Below are positions 40,634 through 47,490 of a stretch of 64,000 nucleotides of DNA, one piece after another. A model generated the notes under the pieces. The model had not been told where the DNA came from. It saw only the letters and a program-made list of their open reading frames with translations, and searched no databases. The translations under genes and the position numbers were made by a program. Each line of letters opens with the position of its first letter. The first letter of the stretch is position 1. This DNA comes from a virus: positions 77,277 through 141,276 of the IMG/VR virus record IMGVR_UViG_3300015371_000001; one strand, 5' to 3'.

Positions 40634-41107
40634 ATGAGCGCTCCGATTGAGGAGCCCGTGCTTCCCGTGTGGGAGGCCACCAAGCGAATCGAGGGCTGGA
40701 ACCCGCACGAGATCTGGACGGCTTCGGTTGGTCCAGCACCAACGGCGGAGGATGTCCAGCGCGAGGACGAGAACCGCACGCACGAGATCCTGCTGTCGTC
40801 ATCGCCGAATGTGCCGACGGCTCCGATGCCGACGATCATCTACGAGGGGCCGGTGATCAAGGACGAGGAGGTCGACACCAAGGTCATTGAGGGCCAGGTG
40901 ATTGATGTCATCGAGACGCACGACACGGTCGTTCCGCCCAATCCACCGATGACTGACGAGGAGCTAGACCAGGCGGTGATCGACGCGGTCGAGCTAGGCA
41001 GCTTCAAGAGCGCCAACGCGCTTCACAGTCATCTGCGGAAGTCCAACGCCATCTCCTACGACCGAGTCAACAAGGCGTGGAAGGCAGCGCATGACGGATC
41101 GGCGTAG
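40634..41107 (+). CDS. Acidic hypothetical protein with possible C-terminal wHTH
   Basis: DEELDQAV..SANALHSHL..ISYDR. Confidence 0.55.
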   Translation: MSAPIEEPVLPVWEATKRIEGWNPHEIWTASVGPAPTAEDVQREDENRTHEILLSSSPNVPTAPMPTIIYEGPVIKDEEVDTKVIEGQVIDVIETHDTVVPPNPPMTDEELDQAVIDAVELGSFKSANALHSHLRKSNAISYDRVNKAWKAAHDGSA

Positions 41108-41576
41108 GCGGCGAGCACTGACGGGGCCTGGAGGCCGGACCATCTGGTACGGCTTCCACCTCAACCGTGTTCGGCCTGAGCCGTTGTTGGTCAGCCTGAT
41201 GAAGTACGACCCGCGAGAAGATCGCATCCCGGTCGTACGCAGTGATCAGCAGGCCAACCTTTTGTCGTCGGAGACCCGACGAGGGACACACAAGCCGGTG
41301 ATCGATCTCGATGTGCCGGTCAAGATGATGTCGTCCACTGACAGGGACAAGCACCATCTCTACATCGACGTGGAGATGTCGTGGCTGAGATACGCCACGC
41401 TTCTCACGGCGCTCCGGTTCGCCGGGGTGATTGAGACCGGCTTCTGGGTTTGGTCTCTGCGCCGAGGGGCGAGCTTCGTTCGTCCTGTCGGCGTGATCAA
41501 GACACCTGAGGAGTACGCCCGTGCTCGGAACATCACGCACGGCTGGATTCGCAGGAGGAAGGAGGGGTCAGGTTGA
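41091..41576 (+). CDS. Hypothetical phage protein with DxD and His motifs
   Basis: HKPVIDLDVP..SST..HHLYID. Confidence 0.65.
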   Translation: MTDRRRRRALTGPGGRTIWYGFHLNRVRPEPLLVSLMKYDPREDRIPVVRSDQQANLLSSETRRGTHKPVIDLDVPVKMMSSTDRDKHHLYIDVEMSWLRYATLLTALRFAGVIETGFWVWSLRRGASFVRPVGVIKTPEEYARARNITHGWIRRRKEGSG

Positions 41577-41830
41577 GAGCTATCCCGCTCGTCCTGCTGG
41601 CCATGTTGTTCATCGCTGCGGCAATCTTCGTGGTCGCTCGGGTCATCCCGAGCAAGCGTCGCGAGGAGACCCGACAGTTGCGGGCGCAAGCTCACGCTCA
41701 TGTCGCCACGTTGATGGCGATTGAGACGCACGCCAAGCAGGCTATCGACGCTGACCCGAGCGATGTGCTGGCTCAGCAGATCCAGTACGAACTACAAGGG
41801 CTCAAGAGAGAGCTTGGAGGCAGTGAATGA
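41573..41830 (+). CDS. Single-TM protein
   Basis: N-terminal TM; precedes SPFH gene. Confidence 0.65.
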   Translation: MRAIPLVLLAMLFIAAAIFVVARVIPSKRREETRQLRAQAHAHVATLMAIETHAKQAIDADPSDVLAQQIQYELQGLKRELGGSE

Positions 41831-42828
41831 GTTACGGCTACAACGAGCCTTGGTCCAAGAGGGCCAAGATCGGAGTCTGGGCAGTGGTGGGCTTTTGCCT
41901 GCTACTAGTGTTCGGACTCGTGAGTTGCGGCGCGATGTCGCACTACGAGACAGGTCCGGGAGAGACCGCTGTCCACGAGAGTGGCGGCATCATGTTTCCG
42001 GTCGACGCAAAGATCGTGGGGTGTATCCCTCCGTCGAGCAACGGTTATGAAGGGCTCGGCGAGAAGTACATCAACTATCCGATCACACAGCGTACGTTCG
42101 AGTTCAGTGCGGACCAGGACGCGGACTCCGGTCCGATTCAGGTGGTCGCGCCGAACAGCATCGACCCCAAGACGCATCAGAGCACCGGCACGGTGACGAT
42201 GTCGGTCAGCGGAGTCGCGACGTTCACGCTCAACTCCATCTGTGACATCTTGAAGGAGTTCCAGCAGGACATCGGTCAGAAGCTCAACGCCGACACCGAC
42301 GACGGCTGGACACGGTTGCTGAACACCTACTTCAAGCCCAGCATGGAGAAGGCACTGGACACCGCGACCAAGCAGTTCGAGTTCAACGGGCTGTACGCGA
42401 ATCCGGACGTGAAGGAGCAGTGGGAGAACAAGGTCGGCGAGTTGTTCGCGCAGTACCTTCAGGCGTCAGCCGGAGGACCGTATTTCTGCGGACCTGACTT
42501 CCCTGGTCCCGGCGCGACCGAGGACCAGTGCGGTGACGTGGCGCTGTTGATTCAGTCGCCGGACATCAGTGATGACCTGGAAGCGTCTATCGAGCAGCAG
42601 CAGATCGCGACCCAGGAGAACCTGGCAGCCAAGCGTCAGAAGGCGACGACGTTGACCCAGGCGCAAGCGCTCGCTCAGGCCGTCAAGCAGTGTCACTGCA
42701 CCCCGCAGGAGTACGCGGCTCTGCTGGACGCTCAGGCGCGCGCTCAGGCCGTCCAGAACGGTGATGTGACGATGATCCTGCCTGGCGGGACCCCGTTGGC
42801 CATGTCGCCACCTGCGGCGCAGCGGTAA
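41827..42828 (+). CDS. SPFH / band-7-like membrane protein
   Basis: N-terminal TM, YPITQRTFEF, beta-alpha core, C-terminal coil. Confidence 0.7.
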   Translation: MSYGYNEPWSKRAKIGVWAVVGFCLLLVFGLVSCGAMSHYETGPGETAVHESGGIMFPVDAKIVGCIPPSSNGYEGLGEKYINYPITQRTFEFSADQDADSGPIQVVAPNSIDPKTHQSTGTVTMSVSGVATFTLNSICDILKEFQQDIGQKLNADTDDGWTRLLNTYFKPSMEKALDTATKQFEFNGLYANPDVKEQWENKVGELFAQYLQASAGGPYFCGPDFPGPGATEDQCGDVALLIQSPDISDDLEASIEQQQIATQENLAAKRQKATTLTQAQALAQAVKQCHCTPQEYAALLDAQARAQAVQNGDVTMILPGGTPLAMSPPAAQR

Positions 42829-42847
42829 GAGAATCGAGTTGTCGGTC

Positions 42848-42884
42848 ATCTACACCTTGGCCTGATAGGCTTCAAGGTGTAGAT
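42848..42884. promoter_or_regulatory. 12-bp perfect inverted repeat (operator or terminator)
   Basis: ATCTACACCTTG-N13-CAAGGTGTAGAT. Confidence 0.55.
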
Positions 42885-42907
42885 TGATCGGCAAGGAGGC
42901 AGTACAC

Positions 42908-43969
42908 ATGGCAACTACCAAGAGCAAGACCGGCACTGACTACCTGCGGAAGCAGAGCGGTGCCACATCACAACCCAAGCAAGTTCTTCCCGACGACCCG
43001 TACAACTCCATTCAGACGGAGAAGTGGCTTCAGACCTTCGAGGGTCTGGAGTACGAGCCGCTGACGAAGATCAAGCGCACCGACATCGACATCCGTGCGA
43101 GCCGGGACAACCAGGCTCGTCCGGAGGCCGTCATTCAGGAAGTCGCCGAGCGATACGCGCTGGCGATGAAGAACGGTGCAGTGTTCCCGCCCGTTGTCGC
43201 GAAGCGCGAGAAGGGCAAGCTGGTCCTGATCGACGGCAACCACCGTGAGGCGGCGTCGAAGATCGCGCAAGGCACCGATGCCACGCTGATGGCGTTCATC
43301 GTCGCCGACGACACCGACTCCAGCATCCTCTACGCGATGATGGTGGAGGCGAACGCGCTCCACGGCGAGGCAGCCGACGACGACTGGCGGCTCCAGCAGG
43401 CGGTTCGCTTGCAGTCGATGGGGTACGACCCTATCCAGGCGTGCGCGCTGGCCGGAGTCAAGGAAGGTTCACTTCGGCGCTACAAGAGCCAGGTTACGGC
43501 GGAGCGGCGCGCTGAGCGTTTGCACGTCCCTGGGTTCAAGGGCATCAAGTCGTCCATGACCAAGGTCGAGCTTGGCCGAATCAAGCTCGACACCGTGTTC
43601 GCGGCAGCGACGCAGTGCGTCCGGGAAACCGCGATGACGCACATGGAGGCGCAGCGGTTCGTCCGCGACATCAACCGGCTCAGCAATGAGGACGCGATGA
43701 TCGCGCTCATCGCTGAGACGGCCAAGACGCGCAAGGCTCGTTTGCGCGAGGAGAAGGCCAAGGGCAGCGGCAAGTCGCCTCTGTCTAGTCCTCGTACGCA
43801 GTTCGCCACCAAGATCGGTGGGCTCCTCGCCATTGATGCGACTGAGCTTCGTGCGGCGGCGCTGACTGACATCGACCGTGTCACCATTTACCGTCGGGCG
43901 GAAGCAGGTCTCGAAAAGCTCATGGCCATCATGGCGCTGTTCGAGGAGGACGGAGTCGAAGGTGGCTGA
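42908..43969 (+). CDS. ParB/Srx-like domain protein
   Basis: NQAR..YALAMKNGAVFPPVV..LIDGNHREAA..ANALHG. Confidence 0.8.
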   Translation: MATTKSKTGTDYLRKQSGATSQPKQVLPDDPYNSIQTEKWLQTFEGLEYEPLTKIKRTDIDIRASRDNQARPEAVIQEVAERYALAMKNGAVFPPVVAKREKGKLVLIDGNHREAASKIAQGTDATLMAFIVADDTDSSILYAMMVEANALHGEAADDDWRLQQAVRLQSMGYDPIQACALAGVKEGSLRRYKSQVTAERRAERLHVPGFKGIKSSMTKVELGRIKLDTVFAAATQCVRETAMTHMEAQRFVRDINRLSNEDAMIALIAETAKTRKARLREEKAKGSGKSPLSSPRTQFATKIGGLLAIDATELRAAALTDIDRVTIYRRAEAGLEKLMAIMALFEEDGVEGG

Positions 43970-44471
43970 TCCTGGAGGACGTGAAGCTCGTCTGAGCAAG
44001 ATGAGCGAAACGACCCGGTGGCTTTGGAGCCAGATGAGCTTCGAGTGGCAGCCGTTGGCTCCGCTCAAGGACCGGGCTCTGGATCTGTGCAACCCAGGAA
44101 CAGCGTTCAAGCGCTACGAGCGGAACGACGAGTCGTACCGGCGTAAGGCCGGAGCGAACGTGGCTGCTCCTCGACAACTCACCCGAGATCAGAAGGTGGA
44201 GTCGGGGAAGAAGATCATCGTCAACGGCTCGTTGGCGACGCTGGTCGGACGCAACTCGCAGTATGGCGAGAAGCGCGAGATCGACGGGGTCACGATGATC
44301 CGGAAGAAGGCGGCGCGGATCGCGCCCGGAGACAACTGCCCGCACTGTGGCACTCCGGGTGAGCGAGCCGGTGTCGATGACGACGCCGTCATGGTGGCGG
44401 AGGTTGCTGAGGAGGCAGCCTTCGTCCCAAAAGATCTGCTCCCGAGAGGGAGCCTGAGCCAAGCAGCGTAG
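43962..44471 (+). CDS. Hypothetical protein; possible -1 frameshift extension to 44662
   Basis: Coupled to ParB-like gene; CPHC; frameshift signal at 44410-44453. Confidence 0.7.
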   Translation: MADPGGREARLSKMSETTRWLWSQMSFEWQPLAPLKDRALDLCNPGTAFKRYERNDESYRRKAGANVAAPRQLTRDQKVESGKKIIVNGSLATLVGRNSQYGEKREIDGVTMIRKKAARIAPGDNCPHCGTPGERAGVDDDAVMVAEVAEEAAFVPKDLLPRGSLSQAA

Positions 44472-44694
44472 CTCCTCCCCTGAACGACTCGACGCGGCAC
44501 GGCGTACGCGCCAAGATGTTGCGCGAGGTGGTCCGGGAGATCGAGCGGCAGCACCGAGACATTCGGATTCAGCAGCGTGGTCCGGTGGCGACATTCGCCG
44601 ATCAACCACTTCGAGACCTGGAGGACACCTTCCGGGACTGGATTCGAGAGGAGGGTGGCTGATGCGCGGCTCTCATTGGGACTGAACCAAGACA

Positions 44695-44727
44695 GGAATC
44701 CCCGGCCTCACGCAGGCCGGGGATTCC
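44695..44727 (+). terminator. Stem-loop terminator
   Basis: 14-bp perfect stem GGAATCCCCGGCCT / AGGCCGGGGATTCC. Confidence 0.75.
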
Positions 44728-44733
44728 GCGTTG

Positions 44734-44762
44734 TTGAAGGTCGGCAACTGCTAATCTATGCT
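44734..44762 (+). promoter_or_regulatory. Host-type promoter
   Basis: TTGAAG-N17-TATGCT. Confidence 0.55.
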
Positions 44763-44810
44763 GTCTAGTAACACATGGTCTCTTTGGAGACTGAACTGGA
44801 GGCAGCACCC

Positions 44811-45290
44811 ATGCCAGCAACCACCAAGGCAATCAACACCAACCGGTACCGGATTCGTCGTGGCGACAGCGAGACGCTGAAGGCGATCCTCGCTGAGGCC
44901 GAGCACCGGCACCGTGATCTCAAGCGGCACGCTCCTGACGCCTACGCCCACCGTGTGTGGGAGGACGTGATCAAGGAGGCCGACGAGAAGAAGATCGCGG
45001 ACCAGATCCCCGGCACCGTCGGCTACACGTTCAAGGTCAAGTACGGGCGTCAGGGCAAGCCTGGTCGTCCCCCGGCTCACCGTGAGGTCCGGCTGGGCTC
45101 GAAGCAGGTCGAGTTGGTCGACAACATGGATCTCCCTGAGCACGCCACCCTGGACAGGGTCGGCAAGAAGCTCGTGTTCCGTGCTCGTACTCCGGTCGTT
45201 CGCGCCGTCCGTTCGGCGGCTCGTTCTGCGCCGGACAGCAAGTCCCGAGAGTCGCTGGACCGGCTCCTGAAGTCCGTGCTCGAAACCTGA
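44811..45290 (+). CDS. Basic hypothetical protein, monocistronic
   Basis: Own promoter, GGAGGCAG SD and downstream hairpin. Confidence 0.7.
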   Translation: MPATTKAINTNRYRIRRGDSETLKAILAEAEHRHRDLKRHAPDAYAHRVWEDVIKEADEKKIADQIPGTVGYTFKVKYGRQGKPGRPPAHREVRLGSKQVELVDNMDLPEHATLDRVGKKLVFRARTPVVRAVRSAARSAPDSKSRESLDRLLKSVLET

Positions 45291-45311
45291 GTCCGGCCTT
45301 CGTCCCCCTGG

Positions 45312-45343
45312 TCGGCCCGTCATCTACTGTGATGGCGGGCCGA
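45312..45343 (+). terminator. Stem-loop terminator
   Basis: TCGGCCCGTCATC / GATGGCGGGCCGA. Confidence 0.65.
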
Positions 45344-45384
45344 TCTTCATGTTCGGCGGTATTAAACCAAGCAGGAGGTCGTGC

Positions 45385-46209
45385 ATGAGGTACCTAGAGG
45401 TTGATCCGGAGTCATTCATTCATCCGGAGCAGGAGGAGCCAGCCCACGGGCGTGGAGCCTGGAACCGGAACGGGATGGAGTGGACCTGGCGCTACGAGTA
45501 CAACCGGGGCGAGACGGTGTTGGGGTCCGAGTGCGAGAAGTCCCTGGACCATTGGGCCGTCGGTGCCGGAGTACGAGCTATCCAGTACCGGCTGTCGTCG
45601 CTGGGGATCGATCACTTCCCGGTGGAGGCTCGGGGCGTGTTCAACCGGCGTACGCAAGAGGCCGTCAGAACGTTCCAGGGGCTCCACAAGGACCCGAAGG
45701 ACGGTAAGCCCCTGGAGGCGGACGGAACGGTCGGCACAAGCGACGCCAGGGCGTTGTGGACGCCGGTCATCGACAACGCCGAGGACTCCAACCGCATCCC
45801 CAACCACTACTGCCGAGGTCAGATCGCCCATGAGTCACAGCTAGACCCAGGCGCTCTGGGATCGCTGGCGTACGACGAGGACGACCCAGACAATCCACGT
45901 CCTCCGGAGGACCGGTACAACGGCTTCGACCGAGGGCTCGCGCAGATCAACAGCGAGGCGCTTCACACCATCGAGTGGGTCTGGTGCTTTAGGCCGTGGT
46001 TCGCGATCAACTTCGCGGCGGAGAAGCTGCGCGACTCGCGTAACGCGCTGGGCGTCAAGTATCCGGACCAGGACCCGGCTGTGTTGTGGGATGCCGCGAT
46101 CTGCTCCCACAACTCTCCGGTGCGTGGTGATCTCTGGGCGAAGCACGGTGAGGCTCCGACGGCGCAGGCAGCGGCGTACGTCCAGGGCGTGAAGGATGCC
46201 ATCTACTAG
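45385..46209 (+). CDS. Peptidoglycan-binding domain plus lytic-transglycosylase-like domain
   Basis: VRAIQYRL..GVF..TQEAVRTFQ..LEADGTVG; HESQLDP..DRGLAQIN..AICSHN. Confidence 0.8.
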   Translation: MRYLEVDPESFIHPEQEEPAHGRGAWNRNGMEWTWRYEYNRGETVLGSECEKSLDHWAVGAGVRAIQYRLSSLGIDHFPVEARGVFNRRTQEAVRTFQGLHKDPKDGKPLEADGTVGTSDARALWTPVIDNAEDSNRIPNHYCRGQIAHESQLDPGALGSLAYDEDDPDNPRPPEDRYNGFDRGLAQINSEALHTIEWVWCFRPWFAINFAAEKLRDSRNALGVKYPDQDPAVLWDAAICSHNSPVRGDLWAKHGEAPTAQAAAYVQGVKDAIY

Positions 46210-46822
46210 GCTCCGGAAGCCGAGTCCGGTCACCCTCGCCAACGAGAAGGTGCCCATCGTCGCGCTCTGCCGGTACCTGGGGATGGACCTGCCGGACTAC
46301 ACCTCCGGCAACATCAAGACGTACTGCCCGTTCGGCGACGTGGAGCACTCCGATCAGGGGATGGAGGCTGCGTTCCGCGTCTACCCCGAGCCGAACAACG
46401 CCTACTGCTTCGCCTGTGGTCTGTTCTTCTCGCCGGTCAGCCTTGCGGCCAAGGCGTGGGACATGACGCGGCGAGAAGCTGCGGTCAATCTCTTGGATTG
46501 GATCGGGTTTAAACCGCTATCTCTGGCAGAGGAGTGGGAGAATGTCGTCAACCCGGTGCCGGTCATCGACAAGGAGTCGTTGGGGCTCGCACTCAGGGTG
46601 TATGTCGAGAGGATCAGCCCAGGGTGGGCTGCGCAAGAGGTGGAGGACGGCTATCCCCAGCGTCAACTGACCAGGTGTTTGGCGCTGCTCGATAGAGTCA
46701 CGACAGAGGCGGAGGCGCAAGTATGGCTGGCTCGCTGTCGTGAGGTCATGTCTGACGCGATAGGAGTAGCGACGGATGCCACGCAAGATCAAGCCGGTGC
46801 CAGGGTGGATCACCCTAGCTGA
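46196..46822 (+). CDS. Primase-type CHC2 zinc-finger protein without TOPRIM domain
   Basis: YCPF...HSD..AFRVY..YCFACG. Confidence 0.75.
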   Translation: MPSTRLRKPSPVTLANEKVPIVALCRYLGMDLPDYTSGNIKTYCPFGDVEHSDQGMEAAFRVYPEPNNAYCFACGLFFSPVSLAAKAWDMTRREAAVNLLDWIGFKPLSLAEEWENVVNPVPVIDKESLGLALRVYVERISPGWAAQEVEDGYPQRQLTRCLALLDRVTTEAEAQVWLARCREVMSDAIGVATDATQDQAGARVDHPS

Positions 46823-47015
46823 GGCGGCAGAGGAGCTAGGACTATCCAAACAAGCCGTCCACAAGTGGGTCAAAGACGACAAGTTCAAGACTCTGGCCAC
46901 CCTAGGGAAGAAGCGAATCTACTGCGTACGACCAAAAGAGGTCGCGGAAATAAAGGCGGCGCGCGAGGCCGTTGCTCAGCTAAGACAGACTTCCCAGCCT
47001 GCGGGGAGCGACTGA
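46776..47015 (+). CDS. Excisionase-like HTH DNA-binding protein
   Basis: WITLAEAAEELGLSKQAVHKWV. Confidence 0.8.
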   Translation: MPRKIKPVPGWITLAEAAEELGLSKQAVHKWVKDDKFKTLATLGKKRIYCVRPKEVAEIKAAREAVAQLRQTSQPAGSD

Positions 47016-47023
47016 TCCGGTCA

Positions 47024-47122
47024 CGGGTTACAGCCGAAAGAGCAGGAAGCGCTACACCGCTGTCAGGTGGGAGGGTGGGCGGTCCACCCGTACGCAACCA
47101 CGTCAGCACAGGTCAAGGCCCG
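47024..47122 (+). ncRNA. Candidate multi-stem intergenic RNA
   Basis: Nested stems CGGGTT/GGCCCG, ACAGC/GCTGT, GGGTGG/CCACCC. Confidence 0.35.
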
Positions 47123-47126
47123 AGTT

Positions 47127-47152
47127 GCCCCAGGCGAGTAGGAGCCTGGGGC
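47127..47152 (+). terminator. Stem-loop terminator
   Basis: GCCCCAGGC / GCCTGGGGC. Confidence 0.65.
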
Positions 47153-47217
47153 TTCACGATGTAGACGGTCGGCAACTAGGCGACAGGTACACTAGAGCGG
47201 TATGAAGGAGGCAGCAT

Positions 47218-47490
47218 ATGGCTGAGACAGTCCAGGGGTTTAAGTTCCCTAGTCGGTATCCGTGGGACCAGTGGGCCAACGGTGAGCAGTGGAAGTTGAA
47301 GCAGGGCGAGGACTTCCATGTGGGTACCAAGTCGTTCCGAGGAGCGGCCTGGCAGCACGCTCGGAGTAACAACCTTGGTCTCAGCACGTCCGTTGTTCGC
47401 GAGGACGGGGCGACCTACATGGTGGTTCAGTTCTCCAAGTCTGAGTCGGACCGGATTAGTCCGGGGTGGTCATCGACCCCCGAAGGTTGA
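47218..47490 (+). CDS. Small phage DNA-binding-type protein
   Basis: RYPWDQWANGEQWKLKQGEDF. Confidence 0.65.
   Translation: MAETVQGFKFPSRYPWDQWANGEQWKLKQGEDFHVGTKSFRGAAWQHARSNNLGLSTSVVREDGATYMVVQFSKSESDRISPGWSSTPEG

Follow-up and report, generated by a model that had tools for sequence, protein, structure and literature searches.

A gene next to a ParB-like gene in a phage genome, read on the plus strand from 43962 to 44471, probably carries a genuine programmed -1 frameshift site of the dnaX/IS911 type that would give isoforms of 169 and 233 amino acids. The stretch of DNA analysed, referred to below as the window, is 64,000 nucleotides long and corresponds to bases 77277-141276 of a 141,276-bp virus record (61.5% G+C, estimated to be 96% complete). 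Coordinates are those of the window unless given as genome positions. The first-pass annotation had interpreted the gene in this way, and the interpretation is supported by two assemblies, by a relative (P0005) in which both frames are fused, and by a -1 architecture with conserved heptamers in the gene family.

The 0-frame ORF begins at GTG 43962 and has a coding log-likelihood of +84/+94. The database gene call starts instead at ATG 44001, but the GTG is the better start since homology to relatives begins upstream of that ATG. A TAG at 44469-44471, read directly, ends the frame; 12 sense codons lie between it and the AAA of the slippery heptamer, which makes the stop the 13th codon. In the -1 frame the last TGA before the shift site is at 44408-44410 and sets the 5' limit of the shift window. 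From 44411 this frame is open for 83 codons, to a TGA at 44660-44662. Any shift is therefore confined to the 61 nt (44411-44471) over which the 0 and -1 frames overlap, and the heptamer C CCA AAA falls inside this interval. The conceptual shifted product has 157 + 76 = 233 residues with the junction FVPK/RSAPER. Its last 76 codons and the TGA occupy 44432-44662 (plus strand) and are predicted to encode a linker, a long helix and a short helix; this extension is likely to be the C-terminus of the long isoform. The positions of the 0-frame stop and of the end of the -1 frame, the junction peptide FVPKRSAPER and the size of 233 residues had all been given correctly in the first-pass annotation.

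The assembled sequence at the shift site is CCCAAAAG, with short homopolymers (C3 and A4). A Shine-Dalgarno (SD)-like 5' stimulator, AGGAGGCAGC, is found on the plus strand at 44410-44419, where AGGAGG takes up 44410-44415. A 10-nt spacer (44416-44425) leads to the slippery heptamer at 44426-44432, which is in phase as GTC CCA AAA (V-P-K) and would place CCA in the P site and AAA in the A site. After another 5 nt (44433-44437) comes the putative 3' stimulatory hairpin, GCUCCC-GAGA-GGGAGC (44438-44453, plus strand), with a GNRA loop. The 28 nt that follow the heptamer fold at -12.4 kcal/mol (z -2.15). Each of these elements lies where it was first annotated, and the proposed likeness to the dnaX/IS911 arrangement holds, with the SD-like element, the heptamer and the downstream hairpin at dnaX-like spacings. 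Two properties of the structure count against a frameshift. The hairpin is short, only 6 bp, and a larger 95-nt structure after the heptamer is no better than its shuffled versions (z 0.11), so only the local hairpin was counted.

Other roles for the same nucleotides were rejected. Initiation from AGGAGGCAGC would lack a start, as there is no ATG, GTG, TTG or in-frame near-cognate codon within 20 nt. For transcriptional slippage the A run is only 4 nt long. A terminator scan also offered the hairpin with its T-run as a minus-strand terminator; the stem has 6 bp and the run 4 T, and the site is inside a plus-strand gene of a genome where 142 of 149 called ORFs are on the plus strand.

A chance origin of these elements is unlikely. 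In-phase heptamers of the form X XXY YYZ occur only 18 times in the 37,244 codons of the genome. Both codons of this one are rare, AAA making up 3.7% of the Lys codons and CCA 13.8% of the Pro codons in genome usage, and the probability of GTC CCA AAA given V-P-K is 0.0022 from codon usage. A fold as stable as that of the 28 nt following the heptamer is reached by only 1.06% of coding 28-mers. Positions 44411-44419 form the full 9-nt consensus ribosome-binding motif of the phage, GGAGGCAG, with no start codon within 20 nt. This motif has 35 plus-strand copies; a start codon is found within 10 nt in 29 of them, and six are orphans, in about 107 kb of coding sequence. The copy in the frameshift gene is one of the six. 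An orphan 8-14 nt before a given site has an expected probability of ~4e-4. The joint probability of the features in the 61-nt interval is far below 0.01, even when multiplied by 79, the number of gene ends that have a long -1 continuation.

The -1 frame has been described as reading like protein, and both codon statistics and homology agree. Under a codon model trained on the genome's 149 ORFs, the -1 frame has a coding score over 44474-44659 (+34/+27 nats), and the 14 codons from the 0-frame stop to ATG 44516 also score as coding. P0005, the syntenic ortholog on contig L003, is a single ORF of 222 aa, and is the kind of in-frame fusion among homologs that had been put forward as a check on the frameshift. 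Contig L003 is colinear with the window over six genes and has one ORF where the window has the 169-aa ORF and the -1 ORF. Identities along this stretch are 36% for the ParB-like gene, 29% for the frameshift gene, 40% for the next gene, 53% for the primase-like gene, 38% for the HTH_17 gene and 50% for the one that follows. Residues 4-149 of P0005 match the 0-frame product (E 4e-19) and residues 156-216, in the colinear C-terminus, match the -1 peptide (E 3e-7, 31% identity); the conceptual 233-aa fusion aligns with residues 4-216 in a single HSP (E 1e-23). The AlphaFold model of P0005 has helices at 169-197 and 207-217, the first of which begins about 4 residues before the position aligned to ATG 44516.

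P0005 is the only fused homolog that matches the C-terminal type of the -1 ORF. When a profile was made from the C-terminal domain in the 'QWH' clade (A3) and compared with the -1 peptide, the probability was 0.2, which is no match, and homology of the extension to that domain is therefore not claimed. When the -1 peptide was used in a word-based search for longer proteins, there were no matches.

Relatives of the gene provide a wider comparison. An exhaustive HMMER search gave 28 of them, 131-269 aa in length, with none above 36% identity. The family has an N-domain of the form WEWQPLEP...PPGKALRRY...SGAR...CPxCG, then a linker, then either a short basic tail or a helical C-terminal region, and many members are simply fused. 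DNA was obtained for nine distinct short-form relatives (L004=L008, L005, L009, L010, L041, L042, L044, L045 and L046). In all nine an ORF in the -1 frame extends past the 0-frame stop, for 62-162 codons in eight of them, while in L005 it is truncated where the contig ends. These -1 ORFs are similar to one another and to the C-terminal parts of fused forms, partly upstream of the 0-frame stop.

In six lineages with pairwise identities of 28-48%, an in-phase xxC CCT TTC is found at one alignment column, where it encodes a conserved (R/H)-P-F after the CxxC motif (L008:2857, L009:2026, L010:2111, L011:2854, L041:2869 and L042:2869). CCT represents only 7-19% of the Pro codons in these contigs, and other invariant residues with 4- to 6-fold degeneracy vary freely in codon across the six lineages. 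A seventh lineage, L045 (52% G+C), has A AAT TTT at the same place (L045:1667). In these seven the -1 ORF extends 74-162 codons beyond the stop (that of L011 is cut by the contig end), and the gene calls are split into two hypothetical proteins. Among five tested C CCT TTC sites, three are closely followed by unusually stable structure. No canonical heptamer is present in the short-form relatives L005, L044 and L046. A comparison of homologs for a conserved heptamer, as first suggested, extends only to relatives of at most 36% identity: these distant relatives keep heptamers, but other ones (six C CCT TTC and one A AAT TTT) and at another position, three have none, and some are fused. The site in the window is lineage-specific and lies 25 codons after the CxxC motif.

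Several relatives have plausible starts of their own for the downstream ORF. These are NTGA overlaps (ATGA or GTGA) in L042, L009 and L010, and GGAG-N7-ATG in L044, so that in the family the C-part is translated separately, instead of or alongside the shifted form. With heptamers, own starts and fused members all occurring, the family shows fused, frameshift-linked and possibly split states, and -1 frameshifting appears to be common in it. As a separate observation, L004/L008 and L005 (1175-1195), roughly 35% identical, share a 10-nt stop context, GGCCTGACGG, in which the -1 frame reads G-L-T and then continues into sequence homologous to the fused forms; L005 has this context without a canonical heptamer.

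Of the other explanations for the broken frame, the one that survives best is a split gene, although it is unlikely. An ancestral fusion would have been broken by a 1-nt deletion, and the two products would now be made separately, the 169-aa N-protein together with a 48-aa C-peptide (ATG 44516-44662) that is initiated weakly de novo or is made when ribosomes re-initiate past TAG 44471, and the slippery cassette would be incidental. The gene caller used for the JGI record did call the 48-aa ORF, and the downstream starts in L042, L009, L010 and L044 are credible. Genes without an SD also occur in the phage. About one quarter of its genes lack an obvious one, so an SD-less start at ATG 44516 is not impossible. 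However, there is no GGAG, GAGG or AGGA in the 25 nt before this ATG, no GGAGGCAG motif ahead of it, and a gap of 44 nt after the stop. The leaderless-promoter motif CCGATAA does not occur upstream of it either. The absence of an SD for the -1 ORF had been seen in the first-pass annotation, where independent initiation at ATG 44516 was named as an outcome that would refute frameshifting. Besides the missing SD, the coding signal, the homology to P0005 and the ortholog's helix all start upstream of the ATG. A split gene also leaves unexplained the rare-codon heptamer, the orphan ribosome-binding site at 10 nt and the top-1% hairpin within 61 nt.

A real but inactivating frameshift mutation is very unlikely. 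Here the C-part would be unexpressed and decaying, and only the 169-aa protein would matter. Relatives do have short forms that end soon after the linker, and the break itself is real in two assemblies. Decay is hard to reconcile with a -1 ORF that keeps full coding statistics and 31% identity to P0005 and is open exactly to the end of the ortholog. All short forms for which DNA was examined keep the -1 ORF, and the stimulatory elements would have to be a coincidence.

Least probable is a sequencing or assembly indel in what is really a single 233-aa ORF: a second contig from another JGI sample (Ga0132255_100002015, 21.5 kb, locus L006) is identical to the window over 41001-47471, with no gaps and with substitutions only at 43628 and 43662, and a one-off error is unlikely when two contigs told apart by 2 SNPs agree elsewhere over about 6.5 kb. 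This makes improbable the assembly indel that had been listed among the possible refutations. Metagenome contigs do carry indels. For example, L024 and L008 come from the same relative and are 99.9% identical, and a 2-nt gap between them breaks the N-domain ORF in L024, so indels or variants do occur in such assemblies. The shift site also has its C3 and A4 homopolymers, but short-read platforms are not prone to errors in homopolymers of 3-4 bases.

The neighbourhood of the gene is that of DNA-handling functions. The ParB-like gene (42884-43969, plus strand, 361 aa; phrog_1033 ParB-like, E 3.6e-6) has a stop that overlaps GTG 43962 of the frameshift gene (GTGGCTGA), and the pair with overlapping stop and start is kept in L003, L004, L041 and L042. 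PG-binding/primase-like genes flank the frameshift gene on the other side and an HTH_17 gene is nearby. Two minus-strand ORFs across the locus (43929-44609 and 44189-44605) were rejected as non-coding by codon statistics. A 14-bp G+C-rich hairpin at 44695-44727, between the -1 ORF and the next gene, is likely to be the end of the transcription unit. It coincides with the terminator first annotated at 44695; a consensus terminator scan favours the minus strand, where the T-run is better, and the plus-strand tail is GCGTTGTT. The DNA of the region had no match among phage and plasmid records, nor did the protein and alignment have one among IMG/VR contigs.

The 0-frame product consists of a winged-helix-like N-domain (residues ~10-120), a CPHC motif, an acidic linker and a short tail. 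The AF2 model of the N-domain has a pLDDT of 83, with residues 10-120 above 90. In a VIA-align structural search the top 50 matches were almost all winged-helix domains, although Z was only 6.3-8.0 with 60-78 residues aligned; they include TubR, MecI, Rpa2, ORC and ArsR/MarR/Fur. Foldseek against the PDB gave only weak winged-helix-like rows with E above 0.4. No family was found in Pfam or PHROGs for the protein or its 27 relatives, and ESM Atlas gave no usable match for the protein. On these models the protein is probably winged-helix-like and DNA-binding, and probably works with its ParB-like neighbour. By analogy with the P0005 model, the long isoform would add a disordered linker, a long helix of ~29 residues and a short helix.

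A programmed frameshift in this gene could operate as follows. Translation would be coupled to that of the ParB-like gene, and most ribosomes would read 43962-44471 and release the 169-aa protein. A fraction of them, with tRNA-Pro on CCA and tRNA-Lys on the rare AAA, may be held by the hairpin at the mRNA entrance while pairing of the anti-SD with AGGAGG 10 nt upstream pulls on the ribosome. The ribosome would then move back by one base, onto CCC AAA, and translate 76 further codons in the -1 frame. The product would be the 233-aa isoform with an added linker and helical C-terminal region, the form seen in the single-frame ortholog P0005. We infer that the shift occurs, and the same applies to its efficiency and to the function of both isoforms.

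The mechanism is of the known dnaX/IS911/G-GT kind, and no new mechanism is involved. For dnaX of E. coli, the SD-like element described by Larsen and colleagues in 1994 reportedly lies ~10 nt 5' of the site, with the stem-loop 5-6 nt 3' of it. The phage gene resembles dnaX in its internal SD-like element, its X XXY YYZ heptamer with Lys in the A site, its simple stem-loop and its two predicted isoforms with a common N-terminus. It differs in the heptamer (A AAA AAG in dnaX, C CCA AAA here), in a shorter hairpin of 6 bp and in encoding an unrelated protein. The shift in E. coli dnaX gives the shorter gamma product, whereas the shifted product here would be the longer form; a 'reversed' dnaX arrangement has been mentioned for a few bacteria (PMC5009743). 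The orfA-orfB pairs of IS911 and the IS3 family have the same upstream SD-like element, heptamer and downstream structure, and there, as proposed here, shifting joins a DNA-binding (HTH-type) product at the N-terminus to a -1 ORF that has no efficient start. Unlike those elements, the phage gene is no transposase and has no inverted repeats, and its downstream part is 76 aa of linker and helices in place of a catalytic domain.

The G/GT genes of lambda and most long-tailed phages also use a -1 shift near the 3' end of a short ORF to make a minor, C-terminally extended isoform. The frameshift gene belongs to another family and region, beside ParB-like, primase-like and HTH_17 genes, and does not lie between the major tail protein and tape measure genes. 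The genome has its own tail-chaperone G/GT pair elsewhere, at genome 65978-66682, so the first description of the frameshift gene as non-tail is right. The G/GT site, G GGA AAA AAG at genome 66601 (L040:2602-2650 = genome 66601-66650), has GGAGGA 13 nt upstream and a hairpin of -14.6 kcal/mol, and serves as an internal positive control. It precedes a 2618-aa ORF (genome 67087-74943) that is presumed, given its size and its place behind the G/GT pair, to be the tape-measure gene.

Frameshifts outside tail genes are known in other phages. In T7, gene 10A/10B gives a C-terminally extended isoform by a non-tail -1 frameshift. PMC10885494 cites a case of the same kind, the major head protein of Lactobacillus phage A2. 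Both of these are capsid proteins, in contrast to the predicted winged-helix protein here. Non-tail phage frameshifts are already documented (PMC10885494, PMC5009743). Among the joined coding sequences in the SEA-PHAGES set that served PRFect, tail assembly chaperones form the overwhelming majority (PMC10885494).

What is new is the gene family, the recurrent recoding suggested across it, and the apparent use of C CCA AAA at several sites in one phage. Annotated phage frameshifts are nearly all in tail chaperones, and here a complete dnaX-like cassette is found in an early or DNA-handling gene. The predicted long isoform is invisible in databases because gene callers split the gene into 'hypothetical proteins' of 156 and 48 aa, and, judging by the family comparison, at least eight other metagenomic phages may be mis-annotated in the same way. 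Together, C CCU UUC, A AAU UUU and C CCA AAA would make a compact test set of heptamers for work on frameshifting in hosts of high G+C; such hosts have two tRNA-Lys species, and the A AAG rule of E. coli does not apply to them. If confirmed, the frameshift would also provide a functional handle on a ParB-like protein and its two-isoform winged-helix partner.

The heptamer of the frameshift gene recurs elsewhere in the genome. In-phase C CCA AAA is found three times, against ~0.16 expected from codon usage (Poisson p ~6e-4), and the other two copies, both outside the window, sit at a gene end or a domain border. The copy at genome 30241 (L039:2742-2970 = genome 30241-30470) is 5 codons before the stop of a 799-aa ORF (DUF6582) and opens into a -1 ORF of 1358 codons whose first ATG is at codon 75. 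The 68 codons directly after the stop precede any ATG and score as coding, and the site is a candidate for a frameshift that would fuse two giant ORFs.

The third copy, at genome 38605 (L039:11106-11150 = genome 38605-38650), falls at residue ~798 of an ORF of 1987 aa in which a Mu-like portal (PF06074) is joined to an ADP-ribosyltransferase domain (PF03496). A spacer of 6 nt separates the heptamer from a hairpin, GCCCCC-GCUA-GGGGGC (-15.4 kcal/mol), and a stop closes the -1 frame immediately (AGC TGA), a layout like that of dnaX gamma. A shift of the dnaX-gamma kind at this place would yield a portal product of ~800 aa without the C-terminal cargo domains.

A broader reading, which must be regarded as doubtful, would join these sites to the family comparison. 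It would see a phage-wide recoding family of ParB-associated winged-helix proteins, covering the heptamers C CCU UUC, A AAU UUU and C CCA AAA in many lineages, in which the isoform ratio is set by -1 frameshifting. C CCA AAA would in addition be a dedicated shift codon pair at three loci, namely the frameshift gene, the junction of the 799-aa ORF and the 1358-codon ORF, and the truncation site in the portal-ADP-ribosyltransferase gene. Under such a reading phage-encoded rare-codon tRNAs (Lys-UUU and Pro-UGG) would read all three, so that the phage could tune the shifts together during infection.

Two further features of translation in this phage may be mentioned. ARAGORN detects 37 tRNA genes (genome 5722-11593 and 59116-59211), 36 of them in one cluster, and these include Lys(UUU), Lys(CUU), Pro(UGG), Pro(GGG) and Pro(CGG). 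The ribosome-binding motif, in the form GGAGGCAG(C), is strikingly uniform genome-wide, with 35 plus-strand and 2 minus-strand copies; those in the window are found, for example, at 41816, 42895, 44798, 47207 and 48522. The CAGC extension of the motif is not complementary to the usual anti-SD.
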